Part shown: in pieces, positions 280-38,766 of the stretch
Layout of the letters: each line of letters opens with the position of its first letter
How positions within the stretch are numbered: position 1 is the stretch's first letter
Assembly: GCA_903831815.1 (NCBI GenBank)
Contig: CAIKZC010000009.1
Span: 71,576-114,432 of the forward strand
From: an uncultured bacterium
GTDB lineage: Bacteria; Patescibacteriota; Minisyncoccia; Phycocordibacterales; UBA11359
Reading direction: 5' to 3'
Length of the DNA: 42,857 nt
Program-made: the position numbers and the translations under genes
Notes under the pieces: generated by a model
Told to the model about the DNA's origin: nothing
The model's input: only the letters and a program-made list of their open reading frames with translations
Databases searched by the model: none

Positions 280-1578
280 TTATCTTGTTGTCCACTCCTC
301 CTCTTGTCTCACCAACAGTTCACCCGCCTTATCTGGATTTAACATAATTTCTTTCACCGCCATCTCCATACGCATTGATTGAGAACCTTTTACGAGCACC
401 ACATCCCCTTCCGCGATCATATTTTGAATAAACGCGCCGGCTTCTTGCGAAGAATCGAATTGCAAAATATTTTTCTCGCTCATACCGGCGTCCTGTGCCG
501 CTTCCGCCATGCGACGAGAGCGTACGCCAACCGTAACAAAAATATCGCAACTTTTGGCGGCAAGTGTACCAATATCTTTATGTGCTTCCGAAGAATGTGC
601 TCCAAGCTCCATCATGTCTCCGAGCACCGCAATCCTGCGTTTAACTTTTGCCAAAGTTCCCAAAGTCTGAAGGGCTTCGGTTGTTGCCACCGGTGAAGCA
701 TTGTATGTATCATCAATAATCAAACTTCCTTTAATACCGTCGATCAAATGCATGCGTCCGCTTGGCGGAATATTATTTTTAAGTGCCAACTTCATTTGCT
801 CAGGATGAATTCCTTGCGCATATCCGACTGCCATGGCGGCCAGAGCCGGATAGACATGATGCTTGCCGAGAGATCCAAACAATTCTATATCAAGCGGTGT
901 GCCAGCGTAGTCAACATTAAAACCAATACCTGTGGGAAAATTGCCTTTACCGTTTTTTTCGGTCAACACTTTGTAATGACTGGCTTTTATAATTCCCCCA
1001 TCAAAGCCATAAAATATTTTTTTACTTTCCGTGTAATCACCAAAAGCGCGCACATCTTCATCGTCATAATTTAAGATCGCGATACCGGCGGGTCCAAGAG
1101 CTCGCACCAAATAAGCTTTTTCCTGAATCAGATCTTCGCGATTTTTGAAATACTCAACATGCACGGGAGTTTTACCGAAACGAGTTACAACAGAAATATC
1201 GGGCTTGAGCCACGTGGTCAATGACCGAATATCGCTGGGTCGATCGGCACCAACTTCTAAAACAAGCCATTCCGGATATTCATGCTCGGAAGCTATGAGG
1301 GAGAGTCCGTGGAACACGTTAGACAGCCAAGCAAAAGGATTATTCCAACCGTTGTCACAACCCAAGATCGTAAGCGGCACACCAATTTCGCTATTAAAAC
1401 TTTTTTCACTTTTGCGAATATGTTGACTTGATGACAAAACGGAGAAAATCGCGTCTTTGGTTGAAGTTTTACCTACACTTCCGGTGACCGTGATTATTTT
1501 AGGATGATATTTTTTAATGACTTGCCGCGCCTCTTTTTGTAATACAAAAACAATAATTTCTTTAACAAATTTTTTCAT
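280..1578 (-). CDS. murF: UDP-N-acetylmuramoyl-tripeptide--D-alanyl-D-alanine ligase
   Basis: VTGSVGKTSTK P-loop, FNSEIGVPLT, DDTYNASP, LGDMMELG, VLVKGS motifs. Confidence 0.93.
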   Translation of the reverse strand: MKKFVKEIIVFVLQKEARQVIKKYHPKIITVTGSVGKTSTKDAIFSVLSSSQHIRKSEKSFNSEIGVPLTILGCDNGWNNPFAWLSNVFHGLSLIASEHEYPEWLVLEVGADRPSDIRSLTTWLKPDISVVTRFGKTPVHVEYFKNREDLIQEKAYLVRALGPAGIAILNYDDEDVRAFGDYTESKKIFYGFDGGIIKASHYKVLTEKNGKGNFPTGIGFNVDYAGTPLDIELFGSLGKHHVYPALAAMAVGYAQGIHPEQMKLALKNNIPPSGRMHLIDGIKGSLIIDDTYNASPVATTEALQTLGTLAKVKRRIAVLGDMMELGAHSSEAHKDIGTLAAKSCDIFVTVGVRSRRMAEAAQDAGMSEKNILQFDSSQEAGAFIQNMIAEGDVVLVKGSQSMRMEMAVKEIMLNPDKAGELLVRQEEEWTTR

Positions 1579-1617
1579 GTTTAAATTGTAGCATTTTTAT
1601 CTTAAAATAGTGTAGCC

Positions 1618-3321
1618 CTATCGATCCGGCGGAATTTGGTAATAATTGATCAAGAATTTGACCGCATCAATGAATGGTTGAGTAAGAGAATGCGATGCGT
1701 ATTCGACGTCTTTTGGATATACAGTGTAAAGGAAGACAAGAAAACGAGGGTTATATGCTGGGAAATAACCAAAGAATGAATGTAAATATCTATCAGTGTA
1801 ATATCCACCTTGCGGATTGGCAATTTGAGCCGTACCTGTTTTTGCCGCAATGCTATAATTGGTTTGTTTTATCGCACCTTCAAGCAACGCTTGATCCACA
1901 ACATTGACGAGCATTTGAGTGATCGTATCGGCAGTCGATTTTTTGATGACTTGCCTACCTTGCACGATCGGAGTTGTTTTTACCAAACCATTTAGATAAT
2001 CGATCTCTTTCGTGACATGAGGAGTGACTAAAACGCCTCCGTTAGCCAAAGCCGAAAGCGCGCGTGTAATAACGATCGGTGACATGGCGATTCCCTGACC
2101 ATATGAAGCGGTAGCATGTTCAATGTCACGTGTGTTCTTTAAGTTATTGATCAAACCATGAGCTTCATTCGGCAAATCAATACCGGATTTTTCTCCTAAA
2201 CCGAAATTTTCCAAGTATTGACTGGAAAGCGTATTCCCAAGTTTACCGGCCACGTAAGCCGCGCCCATATTAAGTGATTGATTTAAAACTTGTTGCATCG
2301 GCACTACACCTCGCGCAACTCCGTCGTAGTTGCAGAACTTTTTATTATTCAAAGTTTCGCAACCTTTGTCGTTGTAAGTTGAATTTACGGTCACTACTCC
2401 GGCATCAAGTCCGGAGGCCATGGTCAAAGCTTTTACGATCGATCCCATTTCATAAACATTTTCAACGAGAGGATTATTAAATACTGTCGGGTCTTTTACG
2501 GTTTGAAAAGTATTTGGATCATAGGTCGGGTAACTTCCGAGGGCATATATTTCTCCCGTCTTCGGGTCAATAATGATCCCGCCAGTCATGACGGAATTAA
2601 ATTTTTTATTCGTTTCGGTCAACTGTTCATCTAGAAAAGATTGAACCGTCGGTTCGATCGTCGTCACAACATCACCCTCTTGATTATCCGATGAAGCTAT
2701 TGAACCAATATCAGTAAACATTTGAGCAAATGAATTGACCTGCATATTTTGAGTTGAACGTTCCAAAATAGAATCATCCGAACTTTCCAAACCGGTACGT
2801 CCAACAAGATCGTTGCCTTTAAAACCAACAAAACCTATGCTTTGTGCCGCTAGCGTAGCGCCTGGATAAAACCGCCATTGTTCTTTATATAGACCGACTC
2901 CGGGAATTTTTTGTGCGGTGATTTTATCAGCCTGCTCCGAACTCAAACGATGTGATATTTCTTCATAAGAATCGTTTGTTTTGCCTGCTTTTTGAATAAA
3001 CGAAGCATGGTCGATAGTAATGACGGTTGATAATTTTTTATAAACATCTTCGGCGTTAATAATTAGTCTTGGATTTACAGTAAGAAAAAAACCAGGCTTA
3101 TCGGTTGCCGCAAAAGTTCGCAAACCGCCTTTGTCGACAAAATATATATTACCTCGATCAAATATTGTTTGACTCGAACTAATATATTGATGATCGGCTT
3201 GTAATTTAAAGGATTGACTGTAAACAACCTGTAAAAAATACAAACGAATAATGAGAACTGCGGCACAGCAAATAATCAGGGTGGAAAATAATCGTATTCT
3301 TGTGGCAAAATTATAGCGCAT
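1618..3321 (-). CDS. ftsI: Class B penicillin-binding protein, FtsI/PBP3-like
   Basis: N-terminal TM, RGNIY, SxxK (GSIVK), SLN, KTG motifs; follows mraZ-rsmH-ftsL. Confidence 0.85.
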   Translation of the reverse strand: MRYNFATRIRLFSTLIICCAAVLIIRLYFLQVVYSQSFKLQADHQYISSSQTIFDRGNIYFVDKGGLRTFAATDKPGFFLTVNPRLIINAEDVYKKLSTVITIDHASFIQKAGKTNDSYEEISHRLSSEQADKITAQKIPGVGLYKEQWRFYPGATLAAQSIGFVGFKGNDLVGRTGLESSDDSILERSTQNMQVNSFAQMFTDIGSIASSDNQEGDVVTTIEPTVQSFLDEQLTETNKKFNSVMTGGIIIDPKTGEIYALGSYPTYDPNTFQTVKDPTVFNNPLVENVYEMGSIVKALTMASGLDAGVVTVNSTYNDKGCETLNNKKFCNYDGVARGVVPMQQVLNQSLNMGAAYVAGKLGNTLSSQYLENFGLGEKSGIDLPNEAHGLINNLKNTRDIEHATASYGQGIAMSPIVITRALSALANGGVLVTPHVTKEIDYLNGLVKTTPIVQGRQVIKKSTADTITQMLVNVVDQALLEGAIKQTNYSIAAKTGTAQIANPQGGYYTDRYLHSFFGYFPAYNPRFLVFLYTVYPKDVEYASHSLTQPFIDAVKFLINYYQIPPDR

Positions 3322-28138: not shown

Positions 28139-28510
28139 ATGAAAGATGCTTTGGGTTGGGGTTTTATTCTTTGGTTCATTGGTTACGTACTTGGAATCGT
28201 GCTTTTTGCGTTTGTGTCCCCTGCCGTGCTTGGGTGGATAATTATGCCAATCGGTATAATTATTACGCTCTGGGTTTTATTTAAAAAAATAAAAAGCGAT
28301 TCGTTTCAACACTACGTTATCATTGCAATTGCCTGGACCCTGATTGCAATCGTTTTTGATTATTTATTTTTGGTTTTAATTTTCAAACCGACTGACTACT
28401 ATAAATTGGATGTTTACCTTTACTATGGATTAACTTTCGTTCTGCCAATCATTGCCGGGTTGAAAAAGAAATCCCTGGCCGATAAATCTCGTCTTAATCA
28501 AGCTATTTAA
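28139..28510 (+). CDS. Hypothetical 4-TM membrane protein
   Basis: GWGFILWFIGY, YYKLDVYLYY. Confidence 0.7.
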   Translation: MKDALGWGFILWFIGYVLGIVLFAFVSPAVLGWIIMPIGIIITLWVLFKKIKSDSFQHYVIIAIAWTLIAIVFDYLFLVLIFKPTDYYKLDVYLYYGLTFVLPIIAGLKKKSLADKSRLNQAI

Positions 28511-29840
28511 CATACCCACAATAAGGTATGTTCACTCTTTTCCTTTTGGTTTCTCCAGGCAACCAATTTTCCCGCAATTTTCGCCAAGCTTCATTTCCTC
28601 TGTTCCCTTCGTGATCACCATCTAAAATCGCAAAATCCGTCGCACCAAGATGGACGGCATGCTTGCCAAATCGGCGATTTATTTCATCAACCACGGAATA
28701 CAGATCTTTTTGTTTTACTTCCCGCACACAATTGCCAAAAATATCCAACTGCATCGGATCTTTGGTCAGATCATGCATATTAAATTGCGTCAGACGATAA
28801 AAATGTTTCGGATTAAATATCCGATCAAACTCCGGTTTAATGTAATTTATAAATGTCACCGGGTCTGCTATCGGTCGATCGATCTTTATCTCACAACCGT
28901 CGTGAATAAAATTGTGAGTCATGATACTGAACGAAAAATGTTTGCTCACCAGCTCAAACCGTCTGGCTTTGATGCAAGCATTTTCGATCACTTTGCACAA
29001 ACGAGAAAAAACCTCTTTCGGATCATTGGACGGCGGTGTAAAAGTTTTTCTCTTGCTGATGTTTCGATACTCATCAACGGGTTCGGTTTGCAAAGCTTTC
29101 ACCGCTTCACCTCGTAGCTCGTACCATGTTTCTATTTGAGGTTTATAAAGATTCTCTTCTACCCACTCAAGTCTCTTGTAGGCAAAATCCAACGCCGTTT
29201 TCACTCCTTTGCCTTGTAAATAATGAGTCGTCTTTTCGCCAATACCCCAAATTTTCCCGACCGGCAGATCTTTCAAAAAATATTGCGCCAGCTTTCCGGG
29301 AATGATAGTGAGTCCTGACGGCTTCTTCCATTTGGAAGCGACTTTGGCCAAAGTTTTGGTTGGCGCGAGCCCGACAGAACACGTCGTGCCGATCATTGTA
29401 TCGATATCGTGTTTTATGGCTTCGGCAATTTCCTGATAGGTCATATTGAGAGAGCGTCTCATTCCGGTAATGTCAGCAAAACATTCATCAACAGAATATT
29501 CCTCAACGTCATCCGAATATCGCTTCACAATCTCGAACATGCGTAACGAATACAAGCCAAAAGTTTCATAATCGGAAGGCAAAATAATACATTCCGGACA
29601 AACTTTTTTAATATCATGTATGCCCATGCCGCGCGTCACTCCAGCCCTTTTGGCCTCGATACTCATTGAAGTGGCGATACCTCTTTCCAAGCCGATACAC
29701 ACGGGCTTGCCGCGCAACTTCACATCCCTTTGCTGTTCGCAAGAAGCAAAAAACGAATCCATATCCACGTGGATAATAGCTCTTTTAAAACTTCTGATGC
29801 AGAGGCATGGCAGTTCTTTTTGTTCATATTTTTTATCCAT
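28503..29840 (-). CDS. Y-family translesion DNA polymerase (DinB/UmuC-like)
   Basis: IHVDMDSFFASCEQ, YSVDECF, LAKVASKWKKPSG, IWGIG. Confidence 0.92.
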   Translation of the reverse strand: MDKKYEQKELPCLCIRSFKRAIIHVDMDSFFASCEQQRDVKLRGKPVCIGLERGIATSMSIEAKRAGVTRGMGIHDIKKVCPECIILPSDYETFGLYSLRMFEIVKRYSDDVEEYSVDECFADITGMRRSLNMTYQEIAEAIKHDIDTMIGTTCSVGLAPTKTLAKVASKWKKPSGLTIIPGKLAQYFLKDLPVGKIWGIGEKTTHYLQGKGVKTALDFAYKRLEWVEENLYKPQIETWYELRGEAVKALQTEPVDEYRNISKRKTFTPPSNDPKEVFSRLCKVIENACIKARRFELVSKHFSFSIMTHNFIHDGCEIKIDRPIADPVTFINYIKPEFDRIFNPKHFYRLTQFNMHDLTKDPMQLDIFGNCVREVKQKDLYSVVDEINRRFGKHAVHLGATDFAILDGDHEGNRGNEAWRKLRENWLPGETKRKRVNIPYCGYVK

Positions 29841-30249
29841 ATCGCCTAATCACGCTTTTGACCACCGCTTTAACTTTCAAATATTCCTGCGGATACATAT
29901 CATGAACGCTCGGATTGGCCGCCTGCAAAAATAATTTGCCGTCGCTGCGCTTGCGAATATATTTAACCGTTTCTTCACCATCGATCTCGGCAATGACGAT
30001 ATCATCAAATTTCCATTTATCGGTACTCTCAACCAACAAAATGTCTTCGTTCAAGATGCCAGCCTCCATCATCGAATCACCTCGAACGCGAAAAAGTTTT
30101 GCGGCGTACATATCGACTTGCAAAAGGTCGGCCAAGTCGATAGTTTCGGAAGTTTCTTCTTCCGAAGGATTGGGAAAGCCAACCGTTTTACCGGCGTGCA
30201 TACTGCCGACAAAAGGCAAAATAAAATTTGTATTTAAAGTTAGTCGCAT
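29833..30249 (-). CDS. UmuD-like S24 peptidase without DNA-binding domain
   Basis: AG/GFP cleavage region, VRGDSM (Ser), ETVK (Lys), LQAANP. Confidence 0.85.
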   Translation of the reverse strand: MRLTLNTNFILPFVGSMHAGKTVGFPNPSEEETSETIDLADLLQVDMYAAKLFRVRGDSMMEAGILNEDILLVESTDKWKFDDIVIAEIDGEETVKYIRKRSDGKLFLQAANPSVHDMYPQEYLKVKAVVKSVIRRYG

Positions 30250-32216: not shown

Positions 32217-32372
32217 AATCAGAAATTGACTTTTTGTGTATTTGTTGTTATAAATAATGCGGAATTTTGCTCGTTGTAATGACAAGGAAATCAGCGCTGG
32301 AAGCCTTTGATGTTAGAAGGTTTTCGGTGCGCACACAATTAACGCCCCAAGTTTGGGGCAAAAGGAGTGGTT

Positions 32373-33920
32373 ATGAGGATCGCGAGACTACTGGCAGCTA
32401 TTGCAACTGTTGAGCCGTTGGAGTCACGCACACTTTTGAGTGCGTTGCCTTGGACAGCGCCGGATGGTACGGACACGTTGTTCGACGCCGAGTTCAATAC
32501 CGGCAAGGTGGTTGATGCGAGTCTAATGCACCAACCGACTTGGCGCGGCAACGGTGATGGAACTTTTTTGGGTCAGACCCAACTGACGGTTACCCAGGAT
32601 GGGATGCCCATCAAACAAAGTGGTGGCATGGCCAGGATGACACTGAATAAGTGGACTCCGAGCATGCTACCAGGACAGCCGGCTTTTCACGGAACGCAAC
32701 TCACCACGAACGATACGTTCCAACTTGGCGCCGATGGCAGTACCCTCACGTTTACGTGGCGGGCCAAGCTGAACACGACCACCAAAGGAATGGTTGTGGG
32801 GTTGTTCGTTTACTACTTCAATCCGGATGGCACGCATGACGAGATCGATTTCGAACTCGTTACTAACTGGAACGGCACAAGGTCCGTTCCGGGCGTGAAC
32901 ACCAACGTCTATTCGGACGAGGCACTCGGGGTAGGTATCCCCCAGTTTGTCAGTATTCCCAAAATGGGAAAACCGACTGGGTTTCATACCTACAGCATTC
33001 AGGTTTCGCCGACAAGCGTTATCTGGATGATCGATGGAAGCATCGTCAGGACTGAGACCGACAAAGTGCCCAGTGGTCCCGTACAGGGATACATCAACAT
33101 GTGGGTGCCGGGCAGAGAATGGCCTGATGCTTACAACGTGAAATTGAAGCCGGTCAGTAGCAAACGCGCCGATCAGCAGTTCAGCGCTTCGGTTGACTAC
33201 TTCAGAGTCACTTCGGTGACTCCGGAGATTCCGTTTACGGTCACAGACGCCTCGGTTCAAAGTGCAACGACCGAAGTAGATCAAGGAAACCCGATTACTG
33301 CGAACGGAACCGTACTTGGAACCGGCAACGGCACGGTGAACTACGCTTGGATGGTTCAAGGCGATAACGACGCCAATCCACAGCAAATCAGTGGTCTGCT
33401 TTCGGCGAACATGATGAATGGCAGCGCCAACATTCCCGACTTTACCGGTCTGCCGGTAAATGTTTCCGGACCGTATCAGGCCTGGATCGATATCACCGAT
33501 CCTGATGGTGAGATGCTTTCAAGCGACTCGTTCTCGTATTCCGTCAACTATGTTGCCCCGGGCATTTCTTTCACTTACGTTCCGCCTCTTGGGAACGGAA
33601 GCAATGTGACGGGGATAGTGACTGGCGGAAACCTGAGCGAGTATGCCGGCGTGGCGCTATACTTGCACGTACCCGGATACAGTCTGGATCCGAGCGTTAC
33701 AAGTGGCTGGTGGACGAAGCCATACTTCACTTCACCTCTCACTTCGATCAATGCGAATGGTACATGGAGTGCCGACGTTGTTACCGGTGGCATCGATCTC
33801 AACTACGGCGTCGAAATCATTGCCTATTTGATTCCGGTTGGATTCGATGTTCCTACGACAGGTGGAGGAACTTTGCCTGCCTCGCTGTCGGAACTGCTGT
33901 TCGTGAAAGTTTCCCGTTGA
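32373..33920 (+). CDS. GH16 glycoside hydrolase with N-terminal LExRxLL motif and C-terminal beta-rich domains
   Basis: DEIDFE catalytic motif, FHTYSI, VDYFRV; VEPLESRTLLS; AAAGGAG SD. Confidence 0.82.
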   Translation: MRIARLLAAIATVEPLESRTLLSALPWTAPDGTDTLFDAEFNTGKVVDASLMHQPTWRGNGDGTFLGQTQLTVTQDGMPIKQSGGMARMTLNKWTPSMLPGQPAFHGTQLTTNDTFQLGADGSTLTFTWRAKLNTTTKGMVVGLFVYYFNPDGTHDEIDFELVTNWNGTRSVPGVNTNVYSDEALGVGIPQFVSIPKMGKPTGFHTYSIQVSPTSVIWMIDGSIVRTETDKVPSGPVQGYINMWVPGREWPDAYNVKLKPVSSKRADQQFSASVDYFRVTSVTPEIPFTVTDASVQSATTEVDQGNPITANGTVLGTGNGTVNYAWMVQGDNDANPQQISGLLSANMMNGSANIPDFTGLPVNVSGPYQAWIDITDPDGEMLSSDSFSYSVNYVAPGISFTYVPPLGNGSNVTGIVTGGNLSEYAGVALYLHVPGYSLDPSVTSGWWTKPYFTSPLTSINANGTWSADVVTGGIDLNYGVEIIAYLIPVGFDVPTTGGGTLPASLSELLFVKVSR

Positions 33921-34422: not shown

Positions 34423-35100
34423 TTAGGAGATTTTTAATTTATAACCTACGCCACGCACGGTTTCCAAGAGACCGTGTTTTCGGCCTTTGTCGATTTTTTC
34501 ACGAAGCCGAAAAATGTAAACCTCTAAAGCATTGGTGAAATTGTCGTAATTGATATCCCAAACATTATCGGTTAAATTAACTCGCTCAATTACAGTGTTG
34601 GGCCGACGCATAAAATATTCGAGAAGTCGGAACTCCTTCAAAGTTAGTTCGATCTCCTTTCCATCTCTAAAAAGTTTTTTAGTATTTAAATCAAGAAGCA
34701 GATCGGCAACTTTTAATTCCGATTTGAGCAATTCCGCCGGACGTCTAGTCAAAGCCATGATCCTAGCGAACAATTCCGAAAAATGAAAAGGCTTGATCAT
34801 ATAATCGTCCGCGCCACTATTTAGCAAAAGCACTTTACTTTCCGTTTCGCCTCTGGCCGTAAGTATCAAAACCGGCGTCTTGATGCCAGCTTCACGAATA
34901 TTTCGACAAACTTCATAACCCGGTTTTTTAGGCAACATCAGATCCAGAATAATAAGATCATAGTCGGCATGATTAAGTTCAATCTTGTTTTGACCCACTT
35001 CACCGTCAGCGGCATGATCAACAATATATCCTTCACCTTTCAATCCCCTTCTTAGAAGATCGGCCAATTTCTGCTCGTCTTCGACAATGAGTATTCTCAT
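34423..35100 (-). CDS. OmpR/PhoB-family response regulator
   Basis: ILIVEDE, ILDLMLP, GADDYMIKPF, ETVRGVGY. Confidence 0.95.
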   Translation of the reverse strand: MRILIVEDEQKLADLLRRGLKGEGYIVDHAADGEVGQNKIELNHADYDLIILDLMLPKKPGYEVCRNIREAGIKTPVLILTARGETESKVLLLNSGADDYMIKPFHFSELFARIMALTRRPAELLKSELKVADLLLDLNTKKLFRDGKEIELTLKEFRLLEYFMRRPNTVIERVNLTDNVWDINYDNFTNALEVYIFRLREKIDKGRKHGLLETVRGVGYKLKIS

Positions 35101-35234: not shown

Positions 35235-36755
35235 CTATTGATAACTACAACTCTGCTCAAAGTCGCCTATTGTCTGACCACAACCATCGTTAATATTGCC
35301 GTATATTCTCCTGAGCCTGATTTCGTTCTGAACACCAGCCTCACGCAACATCCGGCAAAAATTCCTTGCTTCCGCCGTCGTAACATCATTGTCGGCGAGA
35401 TCTAGATCCCCTTTCTTTCTCTTAGACACTTTGTACCTGAGCATCGCAAATCTTCTATACCGACGTGCGAAGGCAATCGCGTCTTCACGGGTGGCATTGA
35501 ACTTCGAAAGGGTGATGGATATAGTGATACCTGGTCTGCCTGGCGACTCATGCCAAATCGCTCGATACCTCGCCAAAATCTCGTCCAAGTCATCGTCTTT
35601 AGATCCTGGCTGGAGAATTTTCCTCTTCCAAGGTATCGCAGAATCCACGCTCCAGTGGTGAGAAGTTCTGGGTAACTTTGCATACCCCTGTCGAAGGAAA
35701 TATGCAAGTTTCTCAGAATCACCGATCGACGTGATAACGAAGTAAAACTGCGGGATCTCGATCTCCGCTAACCGCTTGATGGCCTCGGCACAATTGTCGA
35801 AGTTGTCCGAGGGTTCTCCTTCACCAGAGAAGTAGAGAACAACCCTTTTGGTGACCACCTTTGTATCCAACATCTCTCGAAGCAGGGTACTGTGATTCAT
35901 TGCCAAATAAGGCTGAACAATGATCTCGTTGGCGGTAAAGGACCGAACGAAAGCGACACCTTTTCCAGACGCATCGATGTGATGTTTATGTGCCCGACAC
36001 TTTGGGCACATATGCCGACAACCAAGTGCGCATTGCACCGCGATCGACACTGCATGGGGGTCATCCTCCTTGGGATAGACATACGTATTCAAACAAAAAT
36101 AGGCCCCATCCACTTGCACCTGGGAGGTGATTTTCTCCCCATCATCTCGACCTTTGTCGCTTGGCCTGGTCGTAATACGATTTACACCGCAAATTATCGC
36201 ACTACCCATAGGTATCGACATCCTCCATCGATTCACCTGAAGGTTCCATGAGTAAATGTTCTTGCGTCTCGGCTGCAACAGACCGTTCACCACTTCGATC
36301 AAGTATTTAGGATGATTTATGAATCTCCCCAGATCCTTGAGCATGATTTCGTCCGGCACAAATGTAAGCAGCCCGACTCTAACATGCTCGGCACTGATGA
36401 TGAGAACATTCATTCGCGGAATGATATCCATTACACGCCGAACTAAACCTTCACCAATCTCTGTTCCAACATTGAGATCGAAAATCCCCAAGTTAAATGG
36501 CTTATGAGCCTTCAGGGAGTCCAGAGTGGCTTGGTTCGCCATTGCGATACTCAAAACGCAGACTATCTTCTTGCCAAGCTTTTTCAAAGCGTGAGTTAGA
36601 ACCCAAAGAGTATTTGGATCGTCATCAACGATCAGGATGCTGCCATCCTCACTAGACTCGTTGATAGTGACCAAACCATCTGATTCCCGAAGGTTGGCAA
36701 GAAACTTGAGCCTTCCGGCTTGATGCTCCCTGCGCTCAGTATTTGACGTAATCAT
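35235..36755 (-). CDS. Receiver domain fused to an RlmN/Cfr-like radical SAM protein
   Basis: ILIVDDD...IFDL...IISA...K receiver; GCRHMCPKC, RSFTANEIIVQ, SGEGEP, NINDGCGQ. Confidence 0.8.
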   Translation of the reverse strand: MITSNTERREHQAGRLKFLANLRESDGLVTINESSEDGSILIVDDDPNTLWVLTHALKKLGKKIVCVLSIAMANQATLDSLKAHKPFNLGIFDLNVGTEIGEGLVRRVMDIIPRMNVLIISAEHVRVGLLTFVPDEIMLKDLGRFINHPKYLIEVVNGLLQPRRKNIYSWNLQVNRWRMSIPMGSAIICGVNRITTRPSDKGRDDGEKITSQVQVDGAYFCLNTYVYPKEDDPHAVSIAVQCALGCRHMCPKCRAHKHHIDASGKGVAFVRSFTANEIIVQPYLAMNHSTLLREMLDTKVVTKRVVLYFSGEGEPSDNFDNCAEAIKRLAEIEIPQFYFVITSIGDSEKLAYFLRQGYAKLPRTSHHWSVDSAIPWKRKILQPGSKDDDLDEILARYRAIWHESPGRPGITISITLSKFNATREDAIAFARRYRRFAMLRYKVSKRKKGDLDLADNDVTTAEARNFCRMLREAGVQNEIRLRRIYGNINDGCGQTIGDFEQSCSYQ

Positions 36756-36871
36756 ATTCTACCCCTTGTGCTTTTTGGCACATTGAAGTTGTAAGTTGTC
36801 GAAGAACATACTTCCAAAATTCCAAAGCAATATCGCCGTGGAAACTAATCTAAACCCATACTACGACTAGT

Positions 36872-38026
36872 TTAGGCCTTGTCAACCATCTGGTCATCAG
36901 GATCAAAATCGTAAGGCAAAAAGACGGTGAAGGTGCTACCTTCCCCCACTTTACTTGACACAGAAATTTTTCCGTGGTGCGTTTCAACGATGTTTTTGCA
37001 GATGGCCAAACCCAATCCGGAATCCCCCAAATTTCTGGTTCTAGCTTTATCGATTCGATAAAAACGTTCGAAAATATTCGCAAATTCCTTCTTAGGAATT
37101 CCTATACCGCTATCCTGAACATGGAATATGACGCCTTCTTTGGTTTTTTCAGTCCAGACTTTGATCCAACCATTATTTTTATTATAACTTATGGCGTTTC
37201 TAACCAAATTTAAAATCAATGTTTTCAATTCATCTTCATTCCCAAGTATTTTAACCTTAGACTTATTTACTATATGCTCAATTTTTATTTTTCTATTTTC
37301 GGACACAGCTTTTAGTCCCTTACAAACACTTGCGATTAATTCATCGAAATCAATTTTTTTAAAAACCGAATGAGTTACTGGAACATCATTCGAGGTGAGA
37401 AAGGTTAAATCTGTTAACATTGTAATCATTCTGTGGATCTCAGAGTCAATGTTTTTGGATAATTCAAAATCAACCTTTTCCGACCTATTCATTAAATCCA
37501 GACTGCCGTGCATGATTGCAAGCGATGTTCTAAATTCATGAGAAACATCTTCAATAAAAACGGATTTCAGTTTTGAAATTCTGATCAATTCCTTATTGGC
37601 GTTATCAAGCTCCTTGGTCCTCTCTCGAATATCAGCTTCCATACTTTCGTTTAATTCGGCAAGCTTGTTCCTAAAAGTGATCGCTTTCGTGTTATCGGAA
37701 GCCATTGAAATGACACCTTCAATCTTTCCTTTAGTATTTCTAAACGGAACAGCCAAAATGTCGAGATAAATCTCTTCGCCTTTATTGTTAATATCATGAC
37801 AATTGTCCTTGCGAAAAACTCCGCCATTCTTCAATATTTTTTTGTATTCCTTAACTAGATTTTCGTTTTTAAAAAATTCACCTTTAAAGACATTGTGCTT
37901 TTTATAGTCCCTGATTCTAGAGATTTTTTTATAGTAATTATTGGCAGAGGTAATAAAACCTTTTTTATCGATCGTTATGACACTGATCGGTATGTTGTCC
38001 AAAATTATTTTATCAATTTTGTCCAT
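36872..38026 (-). CDS. Cytoplasmic PAS-domain sensor histidine kinase
   Basis: VSHEFRTSL (H box), NLVRNAISY, DSGIGI, FERFYR, GLGLAI. Confidence 0.93.
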   Translation of the reverse strand: MDKIDKIILDNIPISVITIDKKGFITSANNYYKKISRIRDYKKHNVFKGEFFKNENLVKEYKKILKNGGVFRKDNCHDINNKGEEIYLDILAVPFRNTKGKIEGVISMASDNTKAITFRNKLAELNESMEADIRERTKELDNANKELIRISKLKSVFIEDVSHEFRTSLAIMHGSLDLMNRSEKVDFELSKNIDSEIHRMITMLTDLTFLTSNDVPVTHSVFKKIDFDELIASVCKGLKAVSENRKIKIEHIVNKSKVKILGNEDELKTLILNLVRNAISYNKNNGWIKVWTEKTKEGVIFHVQDSGIGIPKKEFANIFERFYRIDKARTRNLGDSGLGLAICKNIVETHHGKISVSSKVGEGSTFTVFLPYDFDPDDQMVDKA

Positions 38027-38037
38027 AATTAATTAGA

Positions 38038-38766
38038 TTAAATCTTTACGGCTTTGATCCAAAGAGCTTTGGGAATCGTAAGTCTATTTTTTAATTCGGG
38101 GTATCGGCGAACTAGATTTAGTGAAGGTCTGGGTTCGGTGATCTTTGAGATCAAAAAACCGGCTTTAGTTATAGAACCGACAATATCGCTTAGGGTCCAA
38201 TGAAAATCCTTGTATTTGGTTTCCTCCCCATCTATGCGTGTCGAGACAACTTCGATAAGGGTACCGCTAGAAAAATAATTAAAATTATTATTGACCCTAA
38301 AATTTTTTGTTCCCAATAAAGCCGCCAAAGGATGCAGATCGCTTATGATAATTATTCCGGATTTCTTTAATAATTTATATGATGCAGACATTATGGAATC
38401 GATCTTCTTTAAGGAAGGAATTTCCAACAGAACATGCTCAATTAGAATAACATCATAGTAGGATTTCTTTAATCCGGACCTTTCAAGTTTGGTGATGTCT
38501 CCTTTTATGTAAGTAATTTTTGGATTATTTTTATCAGCCAATTTCAATTGTTCCTCCGAGATCTCAATGCCGGTACAGATCGCGCCGCGTTTCGCCAATA
38601 GCTCCAGCCAGTAACCATTTCCCGAACCAAGTTCCAGTATCTTTTTGCCGCTAATATTACCACCGAGCATTCTTTGCAATTCCGCCTCGCCAACGTACTT
38701 TTTACCAAAATTCGGTATTTGTGCGCTTTCAGCCTGTGTCTTGTTCCAATTATGGTTGTTGTTCAT
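38038..38766 (-). CDS. Class I SAM-dependent methyltransferase
   Basis: ILELGSGNG, GIEISEEQL, LKKSG. Confidence 0.88.
   Translation of the reverse strand: MNNNHNWNKTQAESAQIPNFGKKYVGEAELQRMLGGNISGKKILELGSGNGYWLELLAKRGAICTGIEISEEQLKLADKNNPKITYIKGDITKLERSGLKKSYYDVILIEHVLLEIPSLKKIDSIMSASYKLLKKSGIIIISDLHPLAALLGTKNFRVNNNFNYFSSGTLIEVVSTRIDGEETKYKDFHWTLSDIVGSITKAGFLISKITEPRPSLNLVRRYPELKNRLTIPKALWIKAVKI

Follow-up and report, generated by a model that had tools for sequence, protein, structure and literature searches.

We analysed a stretch of 42,857 nucleotides (the window) from contig CAIKZC010000009.1 of an uncultured bacterium of the Patescibacteriota, and in it the gene at 35235–36755 on the reverse strand, which encodes a receiver domain fused to a radical S-adenosylmethionine (SAM) domain resembling those of RlmN and Cfr. 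The open reading frame (ORF) is intact, starts with ATG and specifies a protein of 506 amino acids (P0001 in the homologue set described below), and an AAGGGG ribosome-binding site lies 7 nt 5′ of the ATG. The product is an intact two-domain protein, with a CheY-like receiver that has a complete phospho-acceptor set and a second domain of the RlmN fold. The host genome (G000) comprises 10 contigs totalling 776 kb, with a completeness of 95.7%.

An N-terminal extension (residues 1–35; 36651–36755, on the reverse strand as are all parts of the gene) with a predicted helix at residues 5–24 is absent from most members of the family (alignment A3). The receiver (REC) domain then occupies residues ∼36–167 (36255–36650), as placed by VIA-align superposition, the Pfam REC model and conservation in the family, with key residues D44/D45, D93, S121 and K140; the corresponding motifs are VDDD (residues 43–46), IFDL (91–94), IISA (119–122) and the Lys itself. 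Asp93 (codon 36477–36479), which lines up with the receiver profile and is Asp in 56 of 61 family members, is the predicted phospho-acceptor. The RlmN/Cfr-fold radical SAM domain, delimited with VIA-align and Foldseek, comprises residues 177–501 (35253–36227). Its [4Fe-4S] cluster motif CRHMCPKC (residues 246–253; 35997–36020) provides C246, C250 and C253, aligned to C125, C129 and C132 of E. coli RlmN, and is followed by RSFTANEIIVQ (271–281), SGEGEP (310–315), WSVDS (368–372), R378 and NINDGCGQ (487–494). Within the last of these, Cys492 (codon 35280–35282) is the counterpart of the methyl-carrier Cys of RlmN (E. coli C355), with DGCGQ opposite the AACGQ of RlmN/Cfr. The position of the resolving Cys of RlmN (E. 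coli C118) is taken by Ala239 (codon 36039–36041) in both the hidden Markov model (HMM) and the MAFFT alignments. A first-pass annotation of this DNA had proposed both the receiver motifs and the series of RlmN-like landmarks from CxxxCxxC through NINDGCGQ, and all of them were located at the residues given here. The radical SAM domain is basic (isoelectric point, pI, 8.9; net charge +7), as is the family in general (median pI 8.3).

Taken as a single sequence, the protein scores 22.3 bits with Pfam REC, under the gathering threshold of 30.2, and 27.5 bits with the NCBIfam RlmN model (TIGR00048), for which the equivalog cut-off is 290; Pfam Radical_SAM gives no match, and the only match in a phmmer comparison with PDB sequences is a marginal one to an NtrC receiver (E = 0.85). 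A word-indexed homologue search returned nothing beyond the protein itself. In an exhaustive HMMER search over 1.84 billion representative sequences, 87 representative clusters had E ≤ 1e-3; of these, 49 had E ≤ 1e-10 and 24 had E ≤ 1e-30. The majority are proteins of 430–500 residues with both domains, and their matches run from query residue 39 to ∼499. Sixty-one of the 87 were judged full-length and constitute alignment A2; the 26 omitted as shorter, longer or receiver-only are P0018, 20, 30, 32, 33, 37, 39, 40, 46–48, 56, 61–63, 66, 70, 71, 73, 74, 76, 81, 83, 84, 86 and 87. At E ≤ 0.01 the Pfam Response_reg model matches 53 of the 61 (best REC E = 2.7e-22) and Radical_SAM matches 39. The NCBIfam RlmN model matches all 61 (best E = 5.7e-29) and the Cfr model 55, below its cut-off. 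A profile of the family finds the solved structures 6fz6 (E = 4.4e-42), Cfr (5.8e-38) and RlmN (1e-36), and at the level of the family the similarity to RlmN/Cfr, as judged from these profiles, is far beyond chance.

The fusion family is sparse and fast-evolving. Identity between the window protein and the other members ranges from 22 to 35%, with a mean of 26% and a best value of ∼35%. Only one of 60 relatives examined has the fusion; this is G001, of the same genus, with a protein of 483 residues at 34% identity (P0003). Among 401 genomes sampled from the class it occurs in two, the host itself and G800 (P0002), and when the phylum was sampled with 401 genomes, the 150 best matches listed contained a single full-length one, that of the host (an unpublished genome, G214, is counted in this tally, but nothing claimed here depends on it). 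A pattern built from a four-sequence sub-alignment and scanned against species representatives gave three further loci (L041, L042 and L043) in metagenome-assembled genomes (MAGs) titled Candidatus Paceibacterota, uncultured bacterium and Candidatus Saccharibacteria, so that the fusion is known from five genomes besides the host.

The first-pass annotation had warned that the fusion could be an assembly artefact or a one-off read-through. The recurrence of the fusion in ∼60 representative clusters and five other genomes speaks against both, as do contigs from the Logan collection. In four runs of one lake-water study, one of which is possibly the source sample, the gene is found at ≥99% identity with zero indels; no RNA run is among those listed as holding it, some bins of the gene are without contig cover in runs X2–X4, and the domain junction near 36227–36255 is spanned by contigs of X2 (36178–36717) and X3 (35558–36356). 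With the junction bridged at this level and the architecture kept in ∼60 clusters and six genomes, a chimera or a lost stop codon is ruled out.

Structure prediction from the single sequence was unusable (mean predicted local distance difference test score, pLDDT, 36), but an AlphaFold model built on A2 with its 61 homologues reached a pLDDT of 90.2 and a predicted template modelling score (pTM) of 0.90. Superposition with VIA-align matches model residues 177–501 to residues 47–364 of E. coli RlmN (5hr6_A) with Z 31.2 and a root mean square deviation (rmsd) of 2.7 Å over 287 residues, compared with Z 21.2 for Cfr and 17.2 for the best other radical SAM enzyme. Model residues 36–167 superimpose on many receivers of the CheY-like (βα)5 fold with Z 14–15 and rmsd 1.6–2.9 Å. 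The top 11 PDB chains in Foldseek are 6fz6, nine chains of E. coli RlmN, and Cfr (E = 7.6e-16 to 8.4e-10, the ten best, 6fz6 and RlmN, lying between 7.6e-16 and 1.5e-12); MiaB, viperin and others come after these at E ∼1e-6. In the ESM Atlas, a feature search gave a sub-threshold MoaA-named cluster (0.88) and nothing else, and a structure search gave RlmN/Cfr clusters and no named cluster combining REC with radical SAM. The C-terminal two thirds of the protein are thus predicted to be a domain of the RlmN fold, a radical SAM barrel with a beta extension and a C-terminal stretch, as the first-pass annotation had supposed of its likeness to RlmN, and since the match to RlmN covers model residues 177–501 and the receiver lies at 36–167, the receiver in this model occupies the place of the RlmN N-terminal helical domain.

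In A2 the receiver residues are well kept (D45 in 47 of 61, D93 in 56, Thr or Ser at 121 in 55, and K140 in 56), and so are the cluster cysteines (C246 and C250 in 61, C253 in 60) and C492 (56 of 61). For comparison with RlmN and Cfr we used one MAFFT alignment in E. coli RlmN numbering. It holds 43 canonical rows, namely 34 of RlmN type (33 from Patescibacteria genomes and one, L044, from a Nitrospirota MAG), the E. coli and Clostridia RlmN, Cfr, Cfr(D) and five short hits of the same clade, and 78 family rows (75 distinct), which are 65 fusions and 13 shorter hits that are possibly gene fragments. Rows were assigned to groups by origin and tree clade and not by the residues scored, although the tree uses the same columns.

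The cluster cysteines, present in 43/43 canonical rows, are kept in 77/78 family rows, and the methyl-carrier C355 (43/43) in 70/78; Gly at position 179 is found in 75/78, and N184 and R242 occur in every row. By contrast, the resolving C118 (Cys in 43/43 canonical rows) is Cys in just 10/78, being otherwise mainly Gly (24), Ser (21) or Ala (18); E105 (Glu in 42/43) is Glu in 0/78, with Asn in 24; and M176 (43/43) is Met in 2/78 and Thr in 48. M178 (Met in 37/43) is replaced by Glu in 51/78 and E180 (Glu in 43/43) by Asp in 62/78. In the family-profile alignment the Cys of TLCVSSQVGC faces Gly, Ser or Ala, all of them small, and ACGQ faces GCG; a GxG(D/E) motif is aligned with the GMGEP of RlmN. 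The family also has conserved residues of its own, namely Lys at E. coli position 307 (90%), Thr at 276 (90%), Tyr at 231 (82%) and Glu at 178 (51/78). Some rows carry a Cys elsewhere that is a candidate second Cys: position 177 is Cys in 27/78 family rows, and positions 188/189, which include C322 of the window protein, are Cys in 50/78 family against 1/43 canonical rows. The distribution of these cysteines is patchy and 10/78 rows have none of them, which rules out a uniform relocation of the second Cys. The first-pass annotation had noted Ala in place of the resolving Cys and a Cys at −4 from the cluster motif instead. Both are present in this protein (Ala239 and Cys242) and a non-Cys residue at the former position proves to be a family trait, but C242 recurs in only 2 of 61 members and was dropped as a conserved substitute for C118.

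A quick IQ-TREE phylogeny of 121 radical SAM domains (LG+G4; supports from the Shimodaira–Hasegawa approximate likelihood-ratio test, SH-aLRT, only; unrooted, with a midpoint root for drawing and no outgroup) has a branch with SH-aLRT 99 that leaves the 43 rows of RlmN/Cfr type on one side and every one of the 65 fusions on the other. Because of this branch, the fusion family in our tree is a lineage separate from RlmN/Cfr, whose status as a clade or as a grade turns on the choice of root, rather than RlmN with a receiver attached; the comparison with RlmN and Cfr that the first-pass annotation had called for therefore puts every fusion outside their clade. G800 holds both a canonical RlmN (300.5 bits) and a fusion (76 bits), whereas in the host, in G001 (73% complete) and in the three MAGs a canonical RlmN was not found and just the fusion was seen. 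The five genomic fusion copies other than that of the window score 38.9–76 bits with the NCBIfam RlmN model, all below its cut-off. In a sample of 61 genomes from the order, RlmN is found above the cut-off in three, which agrees with the available text of PMC12641178, where RlmN is reported to be less conserved (patchy) in bacteria of the candidate phyla radiation (CPR).

The tree gave several observations on the canonical side. Most Patescibacteria proteins of RlmN type (loci L004–L038 and L049) cluster with Cfr and not with the E. coli and Clostridia RlmN, in a clade of 33 rows with SH-aLRT 92, and the RlmN copy of G800 scores about equally with the Cfr (307 bits) and RlmN (299 bits) models. 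One Patescibacteria protein of 353 residues (L028; G359:C4, ORF 1297–2358, forward strand) scores 423–432 bits on three NCBIfam Cfr models (cut-offs 468–550) and 283.6 bits on the RlmN model, and its sister group in the tree is plasmid Cfr together with Cfr(D) (SH-aLRT 100); the protein is a Cfr-like enzyme from an uncultured environmental lineage. A second divergent RlmN-like gene, L008 (G026:C2:25251–26078; 127.8 bits, below the cut-off), has a long branch at the base of the canonical clade and shares its genome with a canonical RlmN.

In the window the fusion gene lies within a two-component locus, all on the reverse strand. Directly upstream is a cognate-looking PAS-HisKA-HATPase histidine kinase of 384 residues (36872–38026; Pfam) with its H-box His at about residue 163; further upstream is a class I SAM methyltransferase (38038–38766; Pfam Methyltransf_31/11/23), and directly downstream of the fusion gene is an OmpR-type response regulator (34423–35100; Pfam REC 89.8 and Trans_reg_C 85.5 bits). 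A sigma-70-like promoter match (TTGACA-16 nt-TAGTAT, 10/12; 36858–36885), which comes from a consensus scan alone and has no evidence of function, is situated where the kinase gene ends, just ahead of the fusion gene. The association with the kinase holds at every locus examined: in 6/6 (the window, G001, G800, L041, L042 and L043) the next gene upstream, in the same orientation, encodes an orthologous cytoplasmic PAS-HisKA-HATPase kinase. The five kinases compared are 46–58% identical over their full length and are better conserved than the fusion proteins. In G001 the kinase upstream is homologous to that of the window and the downstream side is masked.

No neighbour other than the kinase recurs across the loci scanned. 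The OmpR regulator directly follows the fusion in 2/6 loci, the window and G800; downstream of the fusion are a HAD hydrolase and then a MASE3 kinase in L041, another PAS kinase in L042, and the contig edge in L043. In L041 and L042 the fusion is the only receiver-domain gene seen beside the kinase. The neighbours named by the first-pass annotation are thus all present in the window, but only the kinase is a constant feature, and the SAM methyltransferase was dropped as a part of the system because its equivalent is missing from the neighbours scanned in G800, L041, L042 and L043. It is possible that the OmpR regulator is a second target of the kinase. The kinase of G800 (L040, 6848–8467, forward strand; 539 residues) has an N-terminal receiver of its own, giving the order REC-PAS-HisKA-HATPase; close by, on the opposite strand, is a gene for a receiver alone, a hint that the phosphorelay of G800 may be a longer one.

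The explanation that we favour, with a probability of roughly 60%, is that the gene encodes a response regulator whose phosphorylation-controlled output is a neofunctionalised radical SAM enzyme of the RlmN/Cfr lineage, with RNA as the best guess for its substrate. We infer that the protein is not an orthologue of RlmN or of Cfr. In this scheme the kinase would phosphorylate Asp93, and phosphorylation would toggle the radical SAM domain by way of its access or its activity, the receiver substituting for the N-terminal helical domain of RlmN. Cys492 would first be self-methylated from SAM, and the 5′-deoxyadenosyl radical would then yield a Cys-CH2 radical that attacks the substrate in the fashion of RlmN. 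The final step must presumably differ from that of RlmN because C118, E105 and M176 are missing; another base or thiol may serve, with E312 or C322 (the Cys of the 188/189 positions) as candidates. A housekeeping RNA is the most likely substrate, given the ancestry of the scaffold, the basic domain and the want of any conserved partner gene except the kinase, although this is the weakest step of the proposal.

Several observations weigh against this interpretation. According to the available text of PMC9692996 and bioRxiv 10.64898/2026.02.27.707579, class A enzymes use two conserved cysteines, of which C118 (RlmN) or C105 (Cfr) abstracts the C2 or C8 proton and is indispensable for resolution of the protein–RNA crosslink. 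No one replacement Cys is conserved in the family, and the 10/78 rows without any candidate include the homologue of the same genus. The methyl-carrier Cys is itself lost in one subclade (SH-aLRT 98; P0026, P0031, P0034, P0043, P0073 and P0018), where Leu, Phe or a gap is found in its stead and the cluster motif is kept, so that both catalytic cysteines of RlmN are gone. None of the 61 members is matched by the Pfam RlmN_N model (PF21016) at E ≤ 0.01, and this makes RNA a less convincing substrate. Lastly, the window protein is an outlier in its family, with a terminal branch of 1.25, a REC domain under the Pfam threshold and YKVS at the site of the family's IKLM, and constraint on it may be relaxed.

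An alternative is that the scaffold has been reused under two-component control for a radical reaction on a target other than RNA, be it DNA, a small molecule or the side chain of a protein. The loss of the RNA-binding N-terminal domain and of the adenine-specific resolving machinery, the grouping of the family apart from RlmN/Cfr, and the residues conserved in the family alone (K307, T276, Y231 and E178) speak for such an enzyme. We nevertheless regard it as unlikely, albeit the strongest of the alternatives: only the kinase recurs at the loci and no neighbouring gene hints at a dedicated substrate or pathway, the domain is still basic, and 70/78 rows retain the methyl-carrier Cys, a hallmark found only with the RlmN type of chemistry on sp2 carbons.

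A simpler proposal, that the fusion is the organism's own RlmN with a regulatory receiver added and carries out m2A2503/m2A37 methylation with unchanged chemistry and sites, is improbable. The RlmN-like fold (Z 31.2), the retained cluster and methyl-carrier cysteines, the absence of a canonical RlmN from the host genome and from what was seen of four of the five other fusion genomes, and the patchiness of RlmN in CPR bacteria (available text of PMC12641178), with RlmN above cut-off in 3/61 order genomes, are all in keeping with it. Against this, C118, E105 and M176 are near-invariant in the 43 canonical rows and largely or wholly lost in the family (10, 0 and 2 of 78), RlmN_N is found in 0/61, and scores of 27.5 bits here and 39–76 in the other five copies are far from the 290-bit cut-off. 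Moreover, every fusion row falls outside the RlmN/Cfr clade (SH-aLRT 99), G800 has both genes, and most relatives that are without RlmN are without the fusion too, since the latter occurs in 1/60.

Slightly less credible still is a mainly regulatory protein, acting as a phosphate sink that vies with OmpR for the kinase or as a Fe-S, SAM or redox sensor that feeds back on the pathway, with a decaying enzyme domain: one kinase does face two receivers in the window and in G800, where OmpR directly follows, this copy is the most divergent member, and the catalytic cysteines are patchily kept (C492 being lost in one subclade), but the retention of the cluster cysteines (77/78), G179 (75/78), N184 and R242 (all rows) and C492 (70/78) goes beyond the needs of a scaffold, L041 and L042 pair kinase and fusion without OmpR, and the fusion stays intact among sequences only 22–35% identical to this protein.

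We considered one further and more novel reading, which we rate as a long shot. As the resolving Cys is missing, the enzyme could remain covalently attached to its RNA target, and the family would then be a natural counterpart of the laboratory RlmN mutant C118A, with which a covalent protein–RNA adduct is seen: a phosphorylation-triggered, single-turnover protein–RNA crosslinker with no turnover methylation. If true, such a protein could serve to inactivate ribosomes or tRNAs, or to mark them, in bacteria with tiny genomes.

Two other features of the window deserve mention. The 517-residue product of a forward-strand gene at 32367–33920 contains a domain of glycoside hydrolase family 16 (57 bits). 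The gene lies inside a 2-kb stretch with 50% G+C compared with 41–42% around it, and may be a recent acquisition. At 29833–30249 on the reverse strand is an ORF of 138 codons with a GDSM motif that by eye resembles an S24 peptidase of the LexA/UmuD type, followed by an ORF of 445 codons at 28503–29840.

The closest known relatives of the output domain are RlmN, Cfr and 6fz6. RlmN (E. coli; PDB 3rf9, 3rfa, 5hr6 and 5hr7) is the dual-specificity C2-methyltransferase of 23S rRNA A2503 and tRNA A37. The fusion shares with it the fold over RlmN residues 47–364, the CxxxCxxC motif, GxGE/D, N184, S233, R242 and the C-terminal GCG; it differs in having Ala239 for the resolving Cys, no counterpart of Glu105 or Met176 and a receiver in place of RlmN_N, in showing 15–18% identity in structural alignments and 27.5 bits against a cut-off of 290, and in lying outside the RlmN/Cfr clade. 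Cfr (PDB 9p0p) is the C8-methyltransferase of 23S rRNA A2503 that confers multidrug resistance. The class A radical SAM fold is common to Cfr and the fusion (Z 21.2; profile E = 5.8e-38), but the differences are the same as those from RlmN, with no counterpart of the Cfr resolving Cys C105, and there is no indication here of a resistance function. Structure 6fz6, from Sphaerobacter thermophilus and deposited as a probable RlmN, is the best match both of the profile (4.4e-42) and in Foldseek (7.6e-16); unlike the fusion it retains MGMGEP, the Glu of IETV and a Cys where the resolving one is expected, and is a standalone protein of 366 residues without a receiver. To students of radical SAM enzymes the family offers an experiment made by nature, in that the scaffold keeps the methyl-carrier Cys and has lost a Cys that is called indispensable in the literature; it either completes the reaction differently or performs other chemistry entirely. 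Patescibacteria are often without RlmN and many other ribosome-biogenesis factors, and the fusion bears on how the translation machinery of these bacteria is regulated.

The first-pass annotation did not recognise this pairing of receiver and output as one already described. In the full-text literature searched, which takes in few subscription journals and does not extend to InterPro architectures, we likewise found no description of a fusion of a receiver to a radical SAM or RlmN-like domain; the sole relevant co-occurrence is in the available text of PMC2788356, where both Pfam names are merely listed as promiscuous domains. The fusion itself, its missing resolving Cys and the kinase beside it at all six loci suggest a radical enzyme that is switched by a signal, a kind for which the literature searched gave no description. 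The outputs of known response regulators are DNA-binding domains and a limited set of enzymes, among them the CheB methylesterase. CheB, the diguanylate cyclase PleD and the EAL phosphodiesterase RocR (the latter two of which turned up in structure or profile searches with the fusion protein or its family) resemble the fusion in that an enzyme domain at the C-terminus follows an N-terminal receiver with the full phospho-acceptor set and a cognate kinase lies alongside. The fusion differs from all three in that its output is a radical SAM enzyme, with an Fe-S cluster and sensitivity to oxygen, and such an output, if true, would be a new route for two-component signals, possibly acting directly on RNA.

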